From: a phage | Strand: one strand, 5' to 3' | DNA: 64,000 bases | Assembly: GCA_014816185.1 (NCBI GenBank) | Contig: GCA_014816185.1_4095.1 | Shown: positions 12,983-55,860 of the stretch, piece by piece | Position numbering within the stretch: position 1 is the stretch's first letter | Layout of the letters: each line of letters begins with the position of its first letter | Translations under genes and position numbers: made by a program | Notes under the pieces: generated by a model | Seen by the model: only the letters and a program-made list of their open reading frames with translations | The model's database searches: none | What the model was told of the DNA's origin: nothing

Positions 12983-15900
12983 ATGTATATCGATGCTTAT
13001 ATGGAACGTAAACGTACTGGTGATATTCTTCATGTAGTTGAACGTAAGAATGGTAAACGTATTCTACGCGAATTAGATCCAGTATATGAATATTATGTTG
13101 AATCCCCACAAGGAACACATAAAACTGTTTATGGTACAATGGCTAAACATTTTGAGTTTCAAACTCAAGCTCAAATGAATAAAAGTGTAGAGCAACACAA
13201 AAGTGAAGGTCTACGTATTTTTGAAAGTGATTGTAACATTACATTTAAAACATTAGCTAAAGAATATATGGGAAAAGGTTCACCCGATTTGAACATCGTG
13301 TTCTTCGATATCGAGACTGATTTCCATAAGAAATTTGGTTATGCTCCACCATCAGATCCGTTTAACCGAGTAACCGCTATTTCTCTATATCAATCATGGA
13401 CTGGAAAGGATTATGTACTTACTTTACCACCTGCTGATATGGAAATTTATGAAGCACAAGATATTGTTCGCCAACTAAATGAAGAAACAAACGATCCTAA
13501 CAGTACTGTAATTTTATATACAGACGAAAAGGAAATGTTTATGGAATTCTTTAGTTTAATTGATGATTCTGATGTTATTTCAGGATGGAATAGTGAATTC
13601 TTTGATATTCCATATATGATCAATCGAACTAAAAAAATCTTCAATGAAGCAACAACTGCTCGTTGGTGTTTATGGAATAAAAAACCAAATTCACGTGAAG
13701 CAGACAACTTTGGTAAAACTGTTCAAACATATGATCTGGTAGGTCGCGTCCATCTTGATTATTTGGCTTTGTATAAGAAACATGCTGGTCAAGTTGAACA
13801 ATCTTATAAACTAGATTATATTGCTGAAAAAGTAACTAAAGAAAATAAAGTATCCTATGAAGGTTCATTGGATAAACTTTACAGAGAGGATTACATTACT
13901 TTCTTGCGTTATTCTAAACAGGATAGTATTCTTCTTAAAAAGATTGATGCTAAATGTGACTATATCAACCTACACAATCGACTTGCACACAAAGAATGTG
14001 TACTTATCAGTACAACAATGGGTTCAGTAGCACTAATCGACACTGCTATTATCAACTTAGCACATACTCGTGGTGAAGTTGTTTTCAACAAAGCACCGAA
14101 AGATGATCTTGAGTTTGATCCAGAAATGGAATATTATGGTGAAGATGGTGAAGAAGAAGATGAGAAAATTAGTGCAAAAGCAGCAGGTGCATGGGTACAA
14201 GATCCAGTACTAGGACTTGTAAGTGACCTTGGGTGTACTGACTTTAACTCTCTTTACCCTACTGTTCTACGTACTTTAGGTATGAGTACTGAATGTATTC
14301 TTGGTCAATTACGTCAAGATTACACCGATGCGTATCTTGCAGCTAAAATCCAAGAACAGAAGAACAAATCTAAATCTAAATCATTTGAACCAGATTGGAC
14401 TGCGGCATGGCATGGTTTATTTGCTGCTGTTGAATTTACAATGGTTCATGAAAAGTCAGAAGAAACATTGATTGTTGATTTAGAAGATGGGAGTTCTTTT
14501 AAAGCAACGGGCAAAGAGCTATATGATATTATTTTTGCAGAAGATAGTACTATTGTACTTAGTGCAAACGGAACACTTTTTGATAAGTCTAAGTCTGGTG
14601 TAATTCCTGACATTCTAACTCAATGGTATTCTGAACGTAAAGCACAGCAAAAAATGGTCATTGACTATAAACATATGTATACTGATGGTTGGGAGTTTAA
14701 TGGCTATGAAAAAGTCGAACCACTACTACCAAACTATACCCCTGGTACAATGTTTAGAACTAATATTCATGATAATGATCCTGTATACTTACTTCGTAAA
14801 GAAATTGGTAAAGGACAGTGGGATGAAGTTGCTAAGTTGATTGTAGAAAATGGATTAGTTCTAAAAGATGGTCGTATTTTCTGTCCTAAAGAAGAAAAAG
14901 ATTACTTCAAACAACGTAGTGCTTTCTGGAAACAGAACCAACAGATTCGTAAGATTCTTCTAAACAGTCTATATGGTGCACTATTGAACAAAGGTTCTCG
15001 TTTTTTTGACAAACGTTTAGGTCAATCCGTAACATTAACTGGACGTTCTATGACCAAACATATGGCAAGTCGTATCAATGAAATTACTACTGGTGTATAT
15101 AACCACCAAGGTGGTTCAGTAATTTATGGTGATACTGACTCAGTTTACTTTAGTGTAACTCATTATCTGAAAGAACAAGGTATTCCATATAATCTATCTA
15201 AAGAAGAGATTGTTGATATGTATATTAAAATTGGTGAAGAAGTTGGTGAATCTTTCCCATCATTTATGCATGAGATGTTCAACACTGGTATTGAAAAAGG
15301 TAAGATTGTTGGTGCAGACCTTGAGATGGTTGGTTCACGTGGCCTATTCTTGAAGAAAAAACGTTATGCAATTCTGAAGTACTGGGAAGATGGGTTCCGT
15401 AAAGATATTGATGGTAAACCTGGTGAAATCAAAGCGATGGGTCTTGAAATTAAACGTTCAGATACCCCAAAATACATCCAGAACTTCCTAGAAGAGACTC
15501 TAATTGCATTACTGGTAGGTGAGAGTGAACAACAGCTAAAACAGCGTGTACGTGAGTTTAAGGACGTATTTAAGGATATGCCAGTACATGAAAAAGGTTC
15601 ACCGAAAACTGTTAAAAACTACACCAACTTAGAGGCTGAATATCAGCTAACAGGTAAGTGTAAGGTTGGTCACGTTCTTGCAGGGATTCAATGGAACCGC
15701 CTACGTGAAGTTTATGATGATAAAACTGTACCAGAAGTAACTGATGGGACAAAAGTAATTGTCTGTAACTTAAAAGATAATCCTATGGGAATTAAAGCAG
15801 TTGGATATCCAATTGACTGTGTTGAGTATCTACCAGAATGGTTCTTAGAATTACCTTTTGATACTGAAAAAATGGAAGAGATTGTTCTAACTAAAAAATT

Positions 15901-15988
15901 AGAGAATATTTTTGGTATTTTGGATATGGATATTGGTATTCATGAAAAAAGTACTGCGTCAGTAAACAATGGATTCTTCACTTGGTAA
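12983..15988 (+). CDS. gp43: DNA polymerase, family B (T4 gp43-like)
   Basis: 1001 aa; exonuclease motif FFDIETDF, polymerase motif YGDTDSVYF, KKRYA motif. Confidence 0.93.
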   Translation: MYIDAYMERKRTGDILHVVERKNGKRILRELDPVYEYYVESPQGTHKTVYGTMAKHFEFQTQAQMNKSVEQHKSEGLRIFESDCNITFKTLAKEYMGKGSPDLNIVFFDIETDFHKKFGYAPPSDPFNRVTAISLYQSWTGKDYVLTLPPADMEIYEAQDIVRQLNEETNDPNSTVILYTDEKEMFMEFFSLIDDSDVISGWNSEFFDIPYMINRTKKIFNEATTARWCLWNKKPNSREADNFGKTVQTYDLVGRVHLDYLALYKKHAGQVEQSYKLDYIAEKVTKENKVSYEGSLDKLYREDYITFLRYSKQDSILLKKIDAKCDYINLHNRLAHKECVLISTTMGSVALIDTAIINLAHTRGEVVFNKAPKDDLEFDPEMEYYGEDGEEEDEKISAKAAGAWVQDPVLGLVSDLGCTDFNSLYPTVLRTLGMSTECILGQLRQDYTDAYLAAKIQEQKNKSKSKSFEPDWTAAWHGLFAAVEFTMVHEKSEETLIVDLEDGSSFKATGKELYDIIFAEDSTIVLSANGTLFDKSKSGVIPDILTQWYSERKAQQKMVIDYKHMYTDGWEFNGYEKVEPLLPNYTPGTMFRTNIHDNDPVYLLRKEIGKGQWDEVAKLIVENGLVLKDGRIFCPKEEKDYFKQRSAFWKQNQQIRKILLNSLYGALLNKGSRFFDKRLGQSVTLTGRSMTKHMASRINEITTGVYNHQGGSVIYGDTDSVYFSVTHYLKEQGIPYNLSKEEIVDMYIKIGEEVGESFPSFMHEMFNTGIEKGKIVGADLEMVGSRGLFLKKKRYAILKYWEDGFRKDIDGKPGEIKAMGLEIKRSDTPKYIQNFLEETLIALLVGESEQQLKQRVREFKDVFKDMPVHEKGSPKTVKNYTNLEAEYQLTGKCKVGHVLAGIQWNRLREVYDDKTVPEVTDGTKVIVCNLKDNPMGIKAVGYPIDCVEYLPEWFLELPFDTEKMEEIVLTKKLENIFGILDMDIGIHEKSTASVNNGFFTW

Positions 15989-31521: not shown

Positions 31522-32367
31522 GTGTTTGATTTCAGTAATATTAAAAATAAGTCGGTCGATGATGATGAAAAACCAACACAGCATTCTTTTTCTATTGCTG
31601 AATTTCTAAAACACATTGACCGTGCTGATTATAAGTACTATAATGACATGACCGAAAAAGAACGAAAAGAGTTTACTCCATATACTGTTTTGCGATGGGT
31701 AAGCTCTTTAGATGATTCGTTACAAGTAACCTACCCTAGTAGTAAAGTTGAAAGTGTATTTGGAAAATGGAAATCTGGTGGTAAAGAAGCACTGACTGAA
31801 CTAGTTACTGAATTAAAGTCTTCAGGGACAAATGTTTCATCAGTAACTAAGTACTGTCATAGTGATTATGATTGGCGTATTAAATTTGCAGTCCAATCAA
31901 AAGATGACGCACAAAAATTAATATCCTCAATGGTCGAATTTGGCGTATCAGGTTCCGAAATTGTTTCATTAGTAGATACTGAAGTTGTCAAATACCAACT
32001 TATTATGCTAAATGATATGGTTAATGATGGATTTTGGGATATGAAAGAACATCCAGAATTAGTATATCAGCTTATGTGTTCAGTCCATGATATGATTGGT
32101 GGACAAGAAATGCCACGTAACTGGTTAAACTTTTCTAAGAATTTCAAAAAGGCAAATAACGAATTATTTGAGTTAATTAAAAGCTCACAACCTGATACTA
32201 TATCTACTCAAATGAATGAAGATGAGTACAAAATTGTTCTATTGCAGTATGATAAAAAAACATTTGAGACATTTCTTGACAATAATGGTTTTCAAGATAA
32301 TGAAAAGAAATCTATGATGAAATTGTTTAAAGAAGAATGTAAAAAATATGGCAAAGAAATCAAGTAA
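31522..32367 (+). CDS. hypothetical protein (281 aa, GTG start)
   Basis: GTG at 31522 preceded by GGAG. Confidence 0.5.
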   Translation: MFDFSNIKNKSVDDDEKPTQHSFSIAEFLKHIDRADYKYYNDMTEKERKEFTPYTVLRWVSSLDDSLQVTYPSSKVESVFGKWKSGGKEALTELVTELKSSGTNVSSVTKYCHSDYDWRIKFAVQSKDDAQKLISSMVEFGVSGSEIVSLVDTEVVKYQLIMLNDMVNDGFWDMKEHPELVYQLMCSVHDMIGGQEMPRNWLNFSKNFKKANNELFELIKSSQPDTISTQMNEDEYKIVLLQYDKKTFETFLDNNGFQDNEKKSMMKLFKEECKKYGKEIK

Positions 32368-33058
32368 TCAAGTATATACCTGTAGATTTTGTGATCGTGA
32401 ATTTAAACGTGAAGAAACTGTAAACACACATAAATGTATAAAACGTGACCGATACGAAGACCGCCAAAGCCGCCAGATGATGGAGGCTTTTCGTATATAT
32501 ATGCAATTTATGGAATTGAATAAGTTCCCATTTAAAAAAGGCGTAGAGCCTTTTATTGCTTTTATAAAGTCAAAGTACTTTAATGATTTTTATAGTTTTG
32601 CCGAATACTATTTGAATAATAGAGATATTATTAATGTGGACGAGTTTGTAAAGTACTTGATTATCAATAACAAACCAATCACTGAATGGAGTACATATAA
32701 AGCAAAAGATGAATGGATATTAAAAACAATTCGTGCCGAGCACCCAAAAGAAGCAATTGCAAGAAGTGTTATCTCACTGGTTGAATGGGCTGAAAATTTG
32801 AATGTACAATGGAATACTTTCTTTGAAAATGTAAGTTCTGCCCGTGCAATTGCATGGATTGAGAGTGGTAAAATTTCACCTTGGATTATCTGGCTTGCTC
32901 CTAAAAAAAGTACTAATAAGTTTTTTAAAAAACTATCAAACTCAGAAATTGAATATATACTTAAATACATCGATCCAAGTTATTTTGAAATCAAAACTAT
33001 AAAATACAAAAAGGATTGTGATGAAATTAAGATTATGCTATGTGAGGCAGGATTATGA
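32348..33058 (+). CDS. hypothetical protein with N-terminal C2H2-like zinc finger
   Basis: 236 aa; CRFCDREFKREETVNTHKC. Confidence 0.5.
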   Translation: MAKKSSNQVYTCRFCDREFKREETVNTHKCIKRDRYEDRQSRQMMEAFRIYMQFMELNKFPFKKGVEPFIAFIKSKYFNDFYSFAEYYLNNRDIINVDEFVKYLIINNKPITEWSTYKAKDEWILKTIRAEHPKEAIARSVISLVEWAENLNVQWNTFFENVSSARAIAWIESGKISPWIIWLAPKKSTNKFFKKLSNSEIEYILKYIDPSYFEIKTIKYKKDCDEIKIMLCEAGL

Positions 33059-33384
33059 ATGGAAAAAGTATATATAATAAAATACCAGAAGGGTATGTAC
33101 CTGTACCTAAAGAACAAAAATCAAAACAAATATCTCTACTTAGACAAGGATCTATTACTGAAATAACTTTAGATGGTAAAACATTTCAAGTTCATGATCC
33201 TGCTCGTATTGAAAAAATTATTTCTTTGGTAGAAAGACACGAAGAACGCTTTTTCAGTTTAAGTCAAGAATTGGCAAAGACAAAACAAAATTGTAGATTA
33301 TTAGAGAATCAAATATCAACTTTGACTAATACAGTTAAACAGTTACAGGAGCAAATAAAAAATGCAGGATTCGACCGATTCTAA
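33055..33384 (+). CDS. hypothetical coiled-coil protein (109 aa)
   Basis: Complete ORF overlapping neighbours by 4 and 23 nt. Confidence 0.45.
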   Translation: MNGKSIYNKIPEGYVPVPKEQKSKQISLLRQGSITEITLDGKTFQVHDPARIEKIISLVERHEERFFSLSQELAKTKQNCRLLENQISTLTNTVKQLQEQIKNAGFDRF

Positions 33385-34000
33385 ACATTATAGAAAAGCC
33401 CGAACTGATATTGACATTGACTTCAAGGATAGTAAAAGCGTAATCGCTAAACTTCCATGTGTGCGAAGTACTGAAAAAATTACGGAGGATGGTTTAATCC
33501 CCCATAATAGTGGTGTTCATTTTGATAATATACCTATTGACCCAATCACTGGATTGGCAAGTATACAATATAAAGAAGCTGAAAGGTTAGGGTATCAAAA
33601 AGTTGATATTCTTTCACAGTCAGCTTACATGTATGTTCGTGATAGAGAGCATTTAAAAGAACTAATGAATCAGGAACCAAATTGGGATCTATTGTTAGAA
33701 CCCGAAATTGTAGAACATCTATCGCAAATTAAAAAACATGTAACTTTATTAAATGTATGGAAGCCTAAATCTATAGACGAACTAGCAATGTTTATTGCAA
33801 TGATTCGCCCAGGAAAAAGGCAGTGCCAAAGTATGAACACATGGGACGAAGTTAAAGCCACCATATGGGATTATAGTACTATCGGCACTGACCAAGCAGG
33901 AAATAAATTACGATATTTCAAAAAGCCACATGCTTACGCATATAGCTTAATGATTGTTGTACAACTAAATGCTTTAGTTGAACATCTTACTTCTTCTTAA
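33362..34000 (+). CDS. hypothetical protein with DnaE (Pol III alpha)-like motifs
   Basis: 212 aa; colinear motifs TDIDIDF, QKVDILSQ, AMIRPGK, YFKKPHAYAYSL resembling DnaE palm/finger motifs (PDFDVDF, KFDFLGL, LFRPGP, GFNKSHSAAYAL) at compressed spacing. Confidence 0.5.
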   Translation: MQDSTDSKHYRKARTDIDIDFKDSKSVIAKLPCVRSTEKITEDGLIPHNSGVHFDNIPIDPITGLASIQYKEAERLGYQKVDILSQSAYMYVRDREHLKELMNQEPNWDLLLEPEIVEHLSQIKKHVTLLNVWKPKSIDELAMFIAMIRPGKRQCQSMNTWDEVKATIWDYSTIGTDQAGNKLRYFKKPHAYAYSLMIVVQLNALVEHLTSS

Positions 34001-34340
34001 GAGCCACATTACGACGCTTGATGCGTTTCTGTGGTAAATTGCTTAAAGAAACTACTGGACCACATACGAAATTCACCGACGGTGTATCGAATCTCTGTGT
34101 GTACGGTTCAAATTTCTCCATCTCTTCTTGAAAGAATAGACAAACTGGAATGGTTCTATTACTTTGCCACCACCAATCGTGTGCTATACCTAACAATTCG
34201 TCTTGCATTGAATCATCCATATCATCGAAACAGTAAAGAGTTGTATACTGTTTGCTTTTGATTTTGATGATACCAACAAACGTTTTACCATCATACTGGA
34301 TTACAGTAATGAATGGTGGAATAGTGTTATATTGATTCAT
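33987..34340 (-). CDS. hypothetical protein (117 aa, minus strand)
   Basis: Complete ORF between + strand genes; basic C-terminus; weak RBS. Confidence 0.4.
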   Translation of the reverse strand: MNQYNTIPPFITVIQYDGKTFVGIIKIKSKQYTTLYCFDDMDDSMQDELLGIAHDWWWQSNRTIPVCLFFQEEMEKFEPYTQRFDTPSVNFVCGPVVSLSNLPQKRIKRRNVALKKK

Positions 34341-35430: not shown

Positions 35431-36486
35431 ATGAACGCTGTACAAAACATAATGGCACAAATTATGAATGATCCAGTACCTGCGATTGGTACATGGTCAC
35501 AACACAACTGTCCAGCTTGTGTGTTCAGAGGACATTCAAGGCCGGATACAAAGCACCGTGGTAATCATATGTTCAATGCAGATGGTTCCGTTTCATATAA
35601 CTGCTTTAACTGTAGTTTAAAAACTGGTTGGCAACCAGGAAAATATATGAGCAAAGATATGGAGTCTTTGCTCATTTCTTTTGGTGCACAAGATAAAGAA
35701 ATAGAATTAGTTAAGTTTTATATTAAAGAAATGGTTGACAGTGGTGATTTTGCTGCACAAGAAACTGTTGCATCAAAATTGTATGACCGAGTAACAGTAC
35801 GTGATTTGCCATCAAATGCAAAAACATTTTGGGAATGGGCTTCTTTACCTGAAGATAAAATTCCACAAGAATTTATAAGTGTTTTGCATAATGTCAATGA
35901 AAGAAACCCATATCTGTTAGACTTAGAATTATATTGGTCACCTAATAAAGAACATAAAATGTATGACAGATTTATTATTCCATATTTCATGAATGGTAAA
36001 ATTATTGGTTATACTGCACGACATAAATTAAAAGATCCTGGAAGTACATACAGGTTCATAAATCAAGTAAGTACTAATATACTATATAACTATGATTTAT
36101 TAAAAGATGAACGAATAAAAACAATTTTAGTATGTGAGGGTCCGTTAGACGCAGCATTAATGGGTGGTGTATCTGCTAATAACTTTAAATTATCAAACGT
36201 ACAGATTGATGTATTAAAAGATGCACAGCAAAAAGGTAAAAAAATAGTTATTGTTCCAGATAGAGATAAAGATGGATTAATAACTATAGACCAAGCACTT
36301 GAAAATGGATTCAGTGTTTCCTTCCCAGACTTTGGTGCTGTAAGAGAAGGTAGTACAATACGTCATATCAAAGACTTTGAAGAAGCTTGTGCACGATTTG
36401 GTAGGTTATTTTGTTTACAATTAATACATGATAGTATAGTAGATGAGCCATTTTATATTAAAGCTCAAACGGATAAATGGATGTAA
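35431..36486 (+). CDS. gp61: DNA primase (T4 gp61-like)
   Basis: 351 aa; N-terminal zinc ribbon CPACVFRGH ... CFNC; TOPRIM-like ILVCEGPLDAALMGG. Confidence 0.85.
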   Translation: MNAVQNIMAQIMNDPVPAIGTWSQHNCPACVFRGHSRPDTKHRGNHMFNADGSVSYNCFNCSLKTGWQPGKYMSKDMESLLISFGAQDKEIELVKFYIKEMVDSGDFAAQETVASKLYDRVTVRDLPSNAKTFWEWASLPEDKIPQEFISVLHNVNERNPYLLDLELYWSPNKEHKMYDRFIIPYFMNGKIIGYTARHKLKDPGSTYRFINQVSTNILYNYDLLKDERIKTILVCEGPLDAALMGGVSANNFKLSNVQIDVLKDAQQKGKKIVIVPDRDKDGLITIDQALENGFSVSFPDFGAVREGSTIRHIKDFEEACARFGRLFCLQLIHDSIVDEPFYIKAQTDKWM

Positions 36487-36508: not shown

Positions 36509-38029
36509 ATGATTCAAAGCACAGTGGATGTGAAACAATATGGGATTAATGCACAACAATACTTATTATCTCAGATTTTCAGTAATCCTGATTTATATGT
36601 ACGTTGTAAAAATATCCTTAAACCAGAATATTTTGATAAAACATTTCATGAAAGTATTCAATACGTACATGATTATGCTGCAAAATATAGTTCATCACCT
36701 ACTTTGAAAGATATTGAAGTTAAAGGTGGTTATCAATACGATCAATATGAAGTTCAAGAATTACATAAACAATCAGTACTTGATACCTGTGGTGAATTTT
36801 GTCGTCATAAAGCATTAGCGTTAGCCGTTGAAAAAGGAATGGAACTTGTCCATCAGAAAAAATATGGTGGAATCGAAGAACTAATCCGAGAAGCAATGTT
36901 GGTAACGGTACAGAATGAGTTAGGTTTGGACATTTTTGAAAACCCTGAAGATACAATCCGCTCACTCAGTACAATGCAAGGGTCATTTAAGAGTGGTTGG
37001 GAAACTCTTGATTACAAACTGTTCGGTGGATTTGGGCGTAGAGAGTTAGAGATCTTTGCTGCTGCATCAGGTGGTGGTAAATCAGTAGTACTGCAAAATT
37101 TAGCAGTTAACTTTGCGAAAGCTGGTATGAATGGTGCATACATTTCACTTGAACTAGCTGAAGAGTTGGTTGCTGTTCGTATCTATGGTATGATGACTGA
37201 ATCAAAACTCAGTAACGTAAAAAATGAAGCTGAAAAGATTGGATTTGCTGTTAAAGTTGAAGGTAAAAACAGTGGTATGTTGCGTATTAAACGCTTACCT
37301 GAATCTGTAACAACCACTGACGATATTGAAAGTTATCTACGTGAATTACAAATTAAGATGGAAATCAAACTTGATTATGTATGCGTGGACTATTTGGATC
37401 TATTAACTTCTAATCGTCTTGGACCAAATGATAAATCCAATACATTTACTAAAGATAAGTTTGTATCAGAAGAATTACGTGCACTTGCAACCAAAATGGA
37501 TTTAACTGTTTTCACTGCATCTCAGTTTAACCGTAGTGGTATGGACGAAGATAAGAAAAGTCAAAGTCAGATTGCTGGTGGTATTTCGAAAATTTATACT
37601 GCTGATAACGTAATTTATATTGAGGCACGAAAAGAAACTGGCGAACTATGGTTTGATTTCCAAAAAACACGTAACAGTAGTGCAGTAGGTTCCCGTTTGC
37701 GTATGTCATATGATATTGATTCATTGAGAGTTCTTGACCACGCAACTACAGTACAACAAATGGAAACCGAAGGTAATGGATTCCGTCACAGCGGTGTTTC
37801 TAAGATTGGTGGAGGGAATATGGCGTTACCACCCAGCACTATGCAAACATTACGTCATACGCTTTCTGGTGCAGCTAAATCACCATCTGTGCAACCTGAC
37901 AATACAGTAACACTAAATACTGATAGTGCTCCTAACTCTACGACACAAAACGAAATACAGAATCCACAGACACATGCTGGTACTGATCGTGTTCATGCAA
38001 TGAAGCAATGGTTAAATCAAAGGAAATGA
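36509..38029 (+). CDS. gp41: replicative DNA helicase (DnaB family, T4 gp41-like)
   Basis: 506 aa; Walker A AAASGGGKSVV; follows primase gene. Confidence 0.9.
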   Translation: MIQSTVDVKQYGINAQQYLLSQIFSNPDLYVRCKNILKPEYFDKTFHESIQYVHDYAAKYSSSPTLKDIEVKGGYQYDQYEVQELHKQSVLDTCGEFCRHKALALAVEKGMELVHQKKYGGIEELIREAMLVTVQNELGLDIFENPEDTIRSLSTMQGSFKSGWETLDYKLFGGFGRRELEIFAAASGGGKSVVLQNLAVNFAKAGMNGAYISLELAEELVAVRIYGMMTESKLSNVKNEAEKIGFAVKVEGKNSGMLRIKRLPESVTTTDDIESYLRELQIKMEIKLDYVCVDYLDLLTSNRLGPNDKSNTFTKDKFVSEELRALATKMDLTVFTASQFNRSGMDEDKKSQSQIAGGISKIYTADNVIYIEARKETGELWFDFQKTRNSSAVGSRLRMSYDIDSLRVLDHATTVQQMETEGNGFRHSGVSKIGGGNMALPPSTMQTLRHTLSGAAKSPSVQPDNTVTLNTDSAPNSTTQNEIQNPQTHAGTDRVHAMKQWLNQRK

Positions 38030-54728: not shown

Positions 54729-54753
54729 CAGAACTAATGTTCTATCCTATAAT
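54725..54753 (+). promoter_or_regulatory. sigma70 consensus promoter upstream of IF-3 gene
   Basis: TTGACA 54725-54730, 17-nt spacer, TATAAT 54748-54753. Confidence 0.65.
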
Positions 54754-54797
54754 TACTATCGAACAAAACATTAAAATCATATTGGAGCTTTTATTAC

Positions 54798-55860
<1,063 letters not shown>

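Follow-up and report, generated by a model that had tools for sequence, protein, structure and literature searches.

A split, minimal DNA polymerase III alpha subunit has been predicted computationally for the group 2.2 jumbo phages (Iyer, Anantharaman, Krishnan, Burroughs & Aravind, Viruses 2021; PMC7824862), in which this phage-specific catalytic module accompanies a family-B polymerase and is divided between two proteins from distant genes, the N-terminal one binding NTP and the C-terminal one binding Mg2+ and template, with no further Pol III domains. Nothing essential distinguishes that system from the pair formed by gp488 and gp449 of phage PBECO4, here called the C-unit and the N-unit, and the split enzyme is already known in the sense of a published prediction. 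The C-unit is equated with the group 2.2 C-terminal protein from the description and phyletic pattern, the text of PMC7824862 giving no accession; the C-unit family is present in Atu_ph07, which that paper names as group 2.2. The present analysis adds the exact split point, a residue-by-residue mapping, the deletions of the thumb and mid-fingers, natural single-chain fusions and conserved gene neighbourhoods. A literature search found no biochemical or genetic experiments on the split enzyme.

The bacterial DnaE1/Pol III alpha proteins (E. coli, T. aquaticus, M. tuberculosis; PDB 5M1S, 2HPI, 7PU7) are single chains of about 1160 residues, whereas the phage form consists of two chains of 172 and 212 residues and has a sequence identity to them of only 15-18%. 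Absent from it are the PHP domain, the thumb (about 78 residues reduced to a turn), about 80 residues of the fingers, all sequence beyond approximately residue 782, the beta-clamp-binding domain, the OB fold and the tau-binding C-terminus. PolC of Firmicutes (PDB 3F2B, 9QPC) differs in the order of its domains and contains PHP and OB domains and an insertion of a DnaQ-type exonuclease; the phage form shows none of these features. Polymerase beta and the other X-family and Pol-beta-fold nucleotidyltransferases are without DnaE-type fingers, and their structural likeness to the phage form is much weaker, at the superfamily level only. In the cyanobacteria Synechocystis and Nostoc, two distant genes (dnaE-n and dnaE-c) encode portions of DnaE that carry intein halves and are spliced into the full-length protein. 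The phage form is similar in that a catalytic subunit is derived from two distant genes, but the cyanobacterial split is located elsewhere and is marked by intein halves.

The window (the whole stretch of phage DNA that was analysed, 64,000 nucleotides) shares at least 99.7% identity with PBECO4 (348 kb) and comes from a Rak2-like jumbo phage of the PBECO4/121Q type, and a group-2-type jumbo phage gene set is present, comprising the family-B polymerase, SSB, UvsW, UvsY, a RecA-like protein, DnaB, primase and clamp loader. The C-unit gene (Table 1), named "DNA polymerase" in RefSeq, has its start codon within the 3' end of the upstream ORF, which it overlaps by 23 nt in the sequence, and its product is predicted to provide the palm strands that bind Mg2+, together with fingers of reduced size. 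The first-pass annotation of this DNA, made from the letters alone, had offered two alternatives for the ORF, an extreme minimal C-family polymerase-like domain or a degenerate fragment. The former was right, yet the ORF supplies only half of the catalytic core, the N-unit being encoded separately. Taken together, the sequence comparisons and structural models make it quite probable that the C-unit is the metal-binding, C-terminal half of a minimal polymerase of the C family (DnaE type) that is thumbless and encoded by two genes.

Table 1. Features of the C-unit gene, its product and its neighbours in the window.
Feature	Residues	Coordinates	Strand	Remarks
Family-B DNA polymerase, full-length		12983..15988	+	1001 aa; Pfam DNA_pol_B_exo1 E 4e-23, DNA_pol_B E 1e-21
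C2H2-type protein gene		32348..33058	+	PHROG 11058; from phmmer synteny table
AGGAG Shine-Dalgarno/ribosome-binding site		33347..33351	+	10 nt upstream of the C-unit ATG; read from sequence
C-unit ORF (split minimal Pol III alpha)	1-212	33362..34000	+	ATG start, 212 aa; PBECO4 gp488 / YP_009150802.1
TDIDIDF	15-21	33404..33424	+	D16/D18/D20 = E. coli DnaE D401/D403/D405
HNSG	48-51	33503..33514	+	= E. coli H511-A-G-G; H48 and G51 invariant
QKVDILSQ	79-86	33596..33619	+	K80 = K553; D82 = D555, third catalytic Asp
AMIRPGK	146-152	33797..33817	+	R149-P150 = E. coli R639-P640, base of fingers
YFKKPHAYAYSL	185-196	33914..33949	+	= E. coli GFNKSHSAAYAL (755-766)
Convergent 117-aa ORF		33987..34340	-	PHROG 11637; overlaps C-unit 3' end by 14 nt
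DnaG-type DNA primase		35431..36486	+	PHROG 47, E 4e-31; conserved downstream neighbour of C-unit
DnaB-like replicative helicase		36509..38029	+	PHROG 19, E 7e-69; conserved downstream neighbour of C-unit

The four DnaE-like motifs first noticed in the ORF were confirmed on the sequence, colinear with those of DnaE and far beyond chance. The E. coli Pol III alpha active site is named as D401, D403 and D555, and H760 is the steric gate that excludes rNTPs, a residue invariant in Pol III alpha (PMC8485763). The C-unit possesses all three catalytic carboxylates of this Pol-beta-like palm. Its first beta-strand (E17-21 in the model) is TDIDIDF, originally compared with two catalytic Asp of the palm; D16 and D18 are indeed the catalytic pair, but D20 is conserved too, and the three match D401, D403 and D405. 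The region of QKVDILSQ, modelled as strand E80-85, had been proposed as the site of the third catalytic Asp, as is borne out by the correspondence of D82 to D555 and by the invariance of both K80 and D82. The AMIRPGK stretch was aligned to DnaE residues 594-642 by both HMMER and hhalign. Within YFKKPHAYAYSL, K188, H190 and Y194 correspond to K758, H760 and Y764, and the fingers helix F-N-K-S-H-x-x-x-Y of DnaE appears as F186-K-K-P-H190-A-Y-A-Y194. Across a diverse alignment of homologues with identity down to 40%, D16, D18, D20, K80, D82, R149, P150, K152, K187, H190 and Y194 are invariant (33 of 33 sequences).

At the level of sequence profiles the C-unit alone is marginal, and its assignment leans on AlphaFold models, which were template-free but came from a network trained on the PDB. 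As a single sequence it gave nothing significant against Pfam, NCBIfam or PDB sequences, its NCBIfam search produced no match, and it does not by itself pass the curated Pfam/NCBIfam thresholds for Pol III alpha; Pfam DNA_pol3_finger matches residues 129-162, which take in AMIRPGK, below threshold (13.5 bits versus a cut-off of 22). The family profile retrieved only DnaE chains from the PDB, with the four motifs colinear, at non-significant E-values of 0.78 and 1.7, and hhalign against E. coli DnaE found the right protein and region with an E-value of 0.013 and a low probability. Thus the profile check suggested at first pass singled out the correct protein and region, but with scores short of significance. 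The C-unit also matches PHROG 11778, which is labelled "DNA polymerase". Its predicted structure is a confident, compact, soluble alpha/beta fold, and the structural comparison, also suggested at first pass, matched this model to C-family polymerases exclusively. The labels "putative membrane protein" in the GAP32, CBB and pEa_SNUABM_50 records would fit an explanation in which the motif resemblance is due to chance and the C-unit is a member of some unrelated family, for instance a membrane protein or the late sigma factor that had been named as a possibility. However, the Pfam, NCBIfam, PHROG and PDB searches gave no match other than DNA polymerase, no search supported an unrelated known family, and the model is that of a soluble protein with structural matches only in family C, which leaves this explanation with a negligible probability. 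The reading of the 212-residue ORF as DnaE-like (Pol III alpha-like) is supported by motif invariance together with the profile, Pfam, PHROG and structural evidence.

The spacing of the motifs is compressed approximately two-fold relative to E. coli DnaE (178 residues from D16 to Y194 versus 363 from D401 to Y764), not three-fold as originally estimated, and most of the shortening is due to two separate deletions, of about 78 residues in the thumb and about 80 in the mid-fingers. The interval from D20 to H48 is 28 residues, compared to 106 between D405 and H511 of E. coli, which implies that the thumb has been replaced by a hairpin turn; in the model, a helix and a beta-hairpin occupy the place of the thumb between the DxD strand and the strand equivalent to H-A-G-G. 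The boundaries of the E. coli thumb were taken to be residues 433 and 510, which reportedly go back to Lamers et al. 2006. The C-unit stops at a point corresponding to about DnaE residue 782, and Pfam domains corresponding to PHP, the beta-clamp-binding domain, the OB fold and the tau-binding C-terminus were found in none of the C-unit, the N-unit and the fused forms.

The part of the palm that is absent from the C-unit is the segment with the G-S triphosphate-binding loop (the PF07733 region), as the C-unit begins only 15 residues before the DxD strand. A search of the window for this N-terminal half by motif regular expressions gave a single match, in an unrelated ORF (54753-55298). The N-unit is gp449 of PBECO4, a protein of 172 residues encoded on the same strand about 30 kb downstream of the C-unit, where it falls outside the window by about 0.3 kb on the 3' side; its sequence was therefore taken from PBECO4, which is 99.7% identical. 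It matches Pfam PF07733 (DNA_pol3_alpha) with an E-value of 1.9e-9 and 37.9 bits against a gathering cut-off of 23.9, and its layout is a helix, a strand, a G-R-G-S-S triphosphate-binding loop and a second helix, with G139-R140-G141-S142-S143 invariant in 30 of 30 N-unit sequences. The two proteins cover adjacent segments of DnaE (about 320-392 for the N-unit and about 396-782 for the C-unit, in E. coli numbering), and their concatenated sequence aligns across the junction to DnaE 320-406. The N-unit ends with EFLKW and the C-unit starts with MQDSTDSKHYRKART-DIDIDF, so that the junction is approximately nine residues longer than in DnaE. Intein-mediated trans-splicing of the halves was considered and rejected, given these nine or so extra residues and the linker of only ten residues in naturally fused forms; with no room for an intein at the junction, the halves must stay separate chains. 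The genes are 14-44 kb apart in other phages, judging by hit coordinates. The two halves occur together in phage genomes: tblastn found the C-unit and the N-unit in equal numbers of records from phages of Escherichia (34/34), Pseudomonas (11/11), Salmonella (8/8), Erwinia (8/8), Xanthomonas (4/4) and Yersinia (4/4), and in nearly equal numbers for Klebsiella (11/10), where the difference may be accounted for by the 86-kb record phiKp_21, a C-unit record that is possibly an incomplete genome.

The C-unit family numbers at least 785 proteins (E<=1e-3), whose length is constant at about 190-220 residues; at 50% identity it has 517 representatives, and almost all of these have 231 residues or fewer. 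Rare single chains unite the two units: P0300, P0390 and P0391 (375-376 residues) and P0384 (336 residues). In P0391, the stretch 10-180 aligns with gp449 (E 6e-24) and the stretch 179-375 with the C-unit from Met1 onward (E 3e-34); in P0384, the N-unit PHROG is matched at 8-108 and the C-unit PHROG at 108-321. The fused chain is modelled as a compact DnaE palm plus fingers. The search for longer homologues recommended at first pass thus yielded these fusions of 336-376 residues, but nothing between them and full-length DnaE turned up in an exhaustive profile search. P0380 (233 residues), in which the C-unit's N-terminal portion is joined to a pseudouridine-synthase fragment, was left out as a probably chimeric or frameshifted gene call. 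Among 185,579 species genomes there were 17 matches to the C-unit, all in metagenome bins of scattered phyla and with jumbo-phage synteny, and these are probably mis-binned phage contigs; a host-derived or cellular origin of the C-unit was rejected on the same evidence.

These data also bear on whether the gene is a degenerate remnant of a full-length, host-derived dnaE that is decaying in the phage genome, as might be supposed from earlier genome papers in which the partner gene was read as a "truncated" Pol III alpha of 172 residues versus about 1120 (PMC5259590), and from the many GenBank records in which the C-unit is left "hypothetical". The size and uniform length of the family, the invariance of its active-site residues, and a synteny that is maintained from phages of E. 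coli to those of Sinorhizobium and Pseudomonas and to marine metagenome phages all argue against decay, as do deletions that amount to clean domain excisions, a model that is confident and compact, and fused forms that share the minimal size with no intermediate lengths. This alternative, which is the degenerate fragment of the first-pass annotation, is effectively refuted by the constant length, the invariant catalytic residues and the fixed synteny, and we consider it extremely improbable.

The neighbourhood of the C-unit is a conserved module extending from UvsW to primase and DnaB, with synteny to primase and DnaB in 19 loci. The gene of a C2H2-type protein, so annotated in the homologue from phage PAC2, is upstream of the C-unit in nearly all related loci according to the phmmer synteny, and the convergent 117-residue ORF is downstream of it at every related locus, including that of a fused gene. 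The N-unit gene is located three or four genes from the clamp loader. The fused gene of P0384, in an unrelated small element, adjoins and is translationally coupled to a gene of the PF03090 Replicase protein family, which we take to be a primase-type family; PDB and NCBIfam searches with this neighbour returned nothing. In the window, a DnaQ-like exonuclease gene adjoins UvsW; none was found in the flanks of the other C-unit loci.

The fixed position of the C-unit gene in the primase-helicase module and the missing domains for processive synthesis are both compatible with a non-catalytic replisome scaffold, that is, a protein- or DNA-binding domain derived from DnaE that might, for example, bridge the primase-helicase and the clamp loader. 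However, the catalytic Asp triad, K80, the partner's GS loop and the steric-gate His would be needless for a scaffold, and they are invariant down to approximately 32-40% identity, making a purely structural role very improbable. The same positional evidence, with the C-unit fixed among UvsW, primase and DnaB and the N-unit near the clamp loader, points to an auxiliary replisome polymerase beside the family-B replicase as the most likely function of the pair. The family-B polymerase of the window is presumably the main replicase, and its presence implies that the minimal Pol III is an additional polymerase.

In the proposed mechanism, which draws on the fusion proteins and the single-chain model, the N-unit and C-unit proteins would associate non-covalently, the N-unit completing the palm beta-sheet beside the DIDID strand and placing its GS loop over the metal site, and the resulting complex would add dNTPs to a primer on a template. 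Utilization of dNTPs rather than rNTPs is suggested by the conservation of the steric-gate His. Because the complex has no thumb, PHP domain, clamp-binding domain or OB fold, it would probably be distributive on its own and work within the replisome. Candidate tasks are a short extension of primers made by the primase before hand-off, or gap filling and repair. The choice of a specific task is the weakest step of this proposal, and a primer-extension role is not singled out by the gene order because any replication gene is expected near primase and clamp loader. A family-C polymerase without a thumb or a clamp-binding element is not guaranteed to perform templated synthesis, and we know of no precedent for such an enzyme in the family. 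In an alternative that we regard as improbable, the pair would be a Pol-beta-fold nucleotidyltransferase derived from DnaE that does not carry out templated replication but might act, for example, as a terminal transferase that adds untemplated tails, modify DNA ends, or make a nucleotide signal or primer-like oligonucleotide. A more specific version of the polymerase interpretation, to which we attach a low but appreciable likelihood, is that the minimal Pol III is a primase-coupled primer-extension polymerase, comparable to Pol alpha or to DnaE of B. subtilis within a replisome whose replicase is otherwise of family B, and a near-minimal, possibly ancestral core of family C. The single-chain forms and the fusion coupled to PF03090 suggest a portable prime-and-extend module that reaches beyond the jumbo phages.

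The DnaE-like nature of the C-unit was correctly deduced from raw sequence, which amounts to a rediscovery of the published prediction. In many GenBank records the C-unit gene is still "hypothetical" or a "membrane protein", and some papers count the N-terminal half alone as a "truncated DnaE". If the two proteins together are active, they would constitute by far the smallest C-family polymerase (about 340-385 residues versus about 1160), thereby defining a minimal catalytic core for bacterial replicases of this family, and the sole member without a thumb and with a fold split in the middle of the palm. If the interpretation is true, it would bear on the descent of the C family from Pol-beta-like nucleotidyltransferases, and a single replisome would combine polymerases of the bacterial and archaeo-eukaryotic types.

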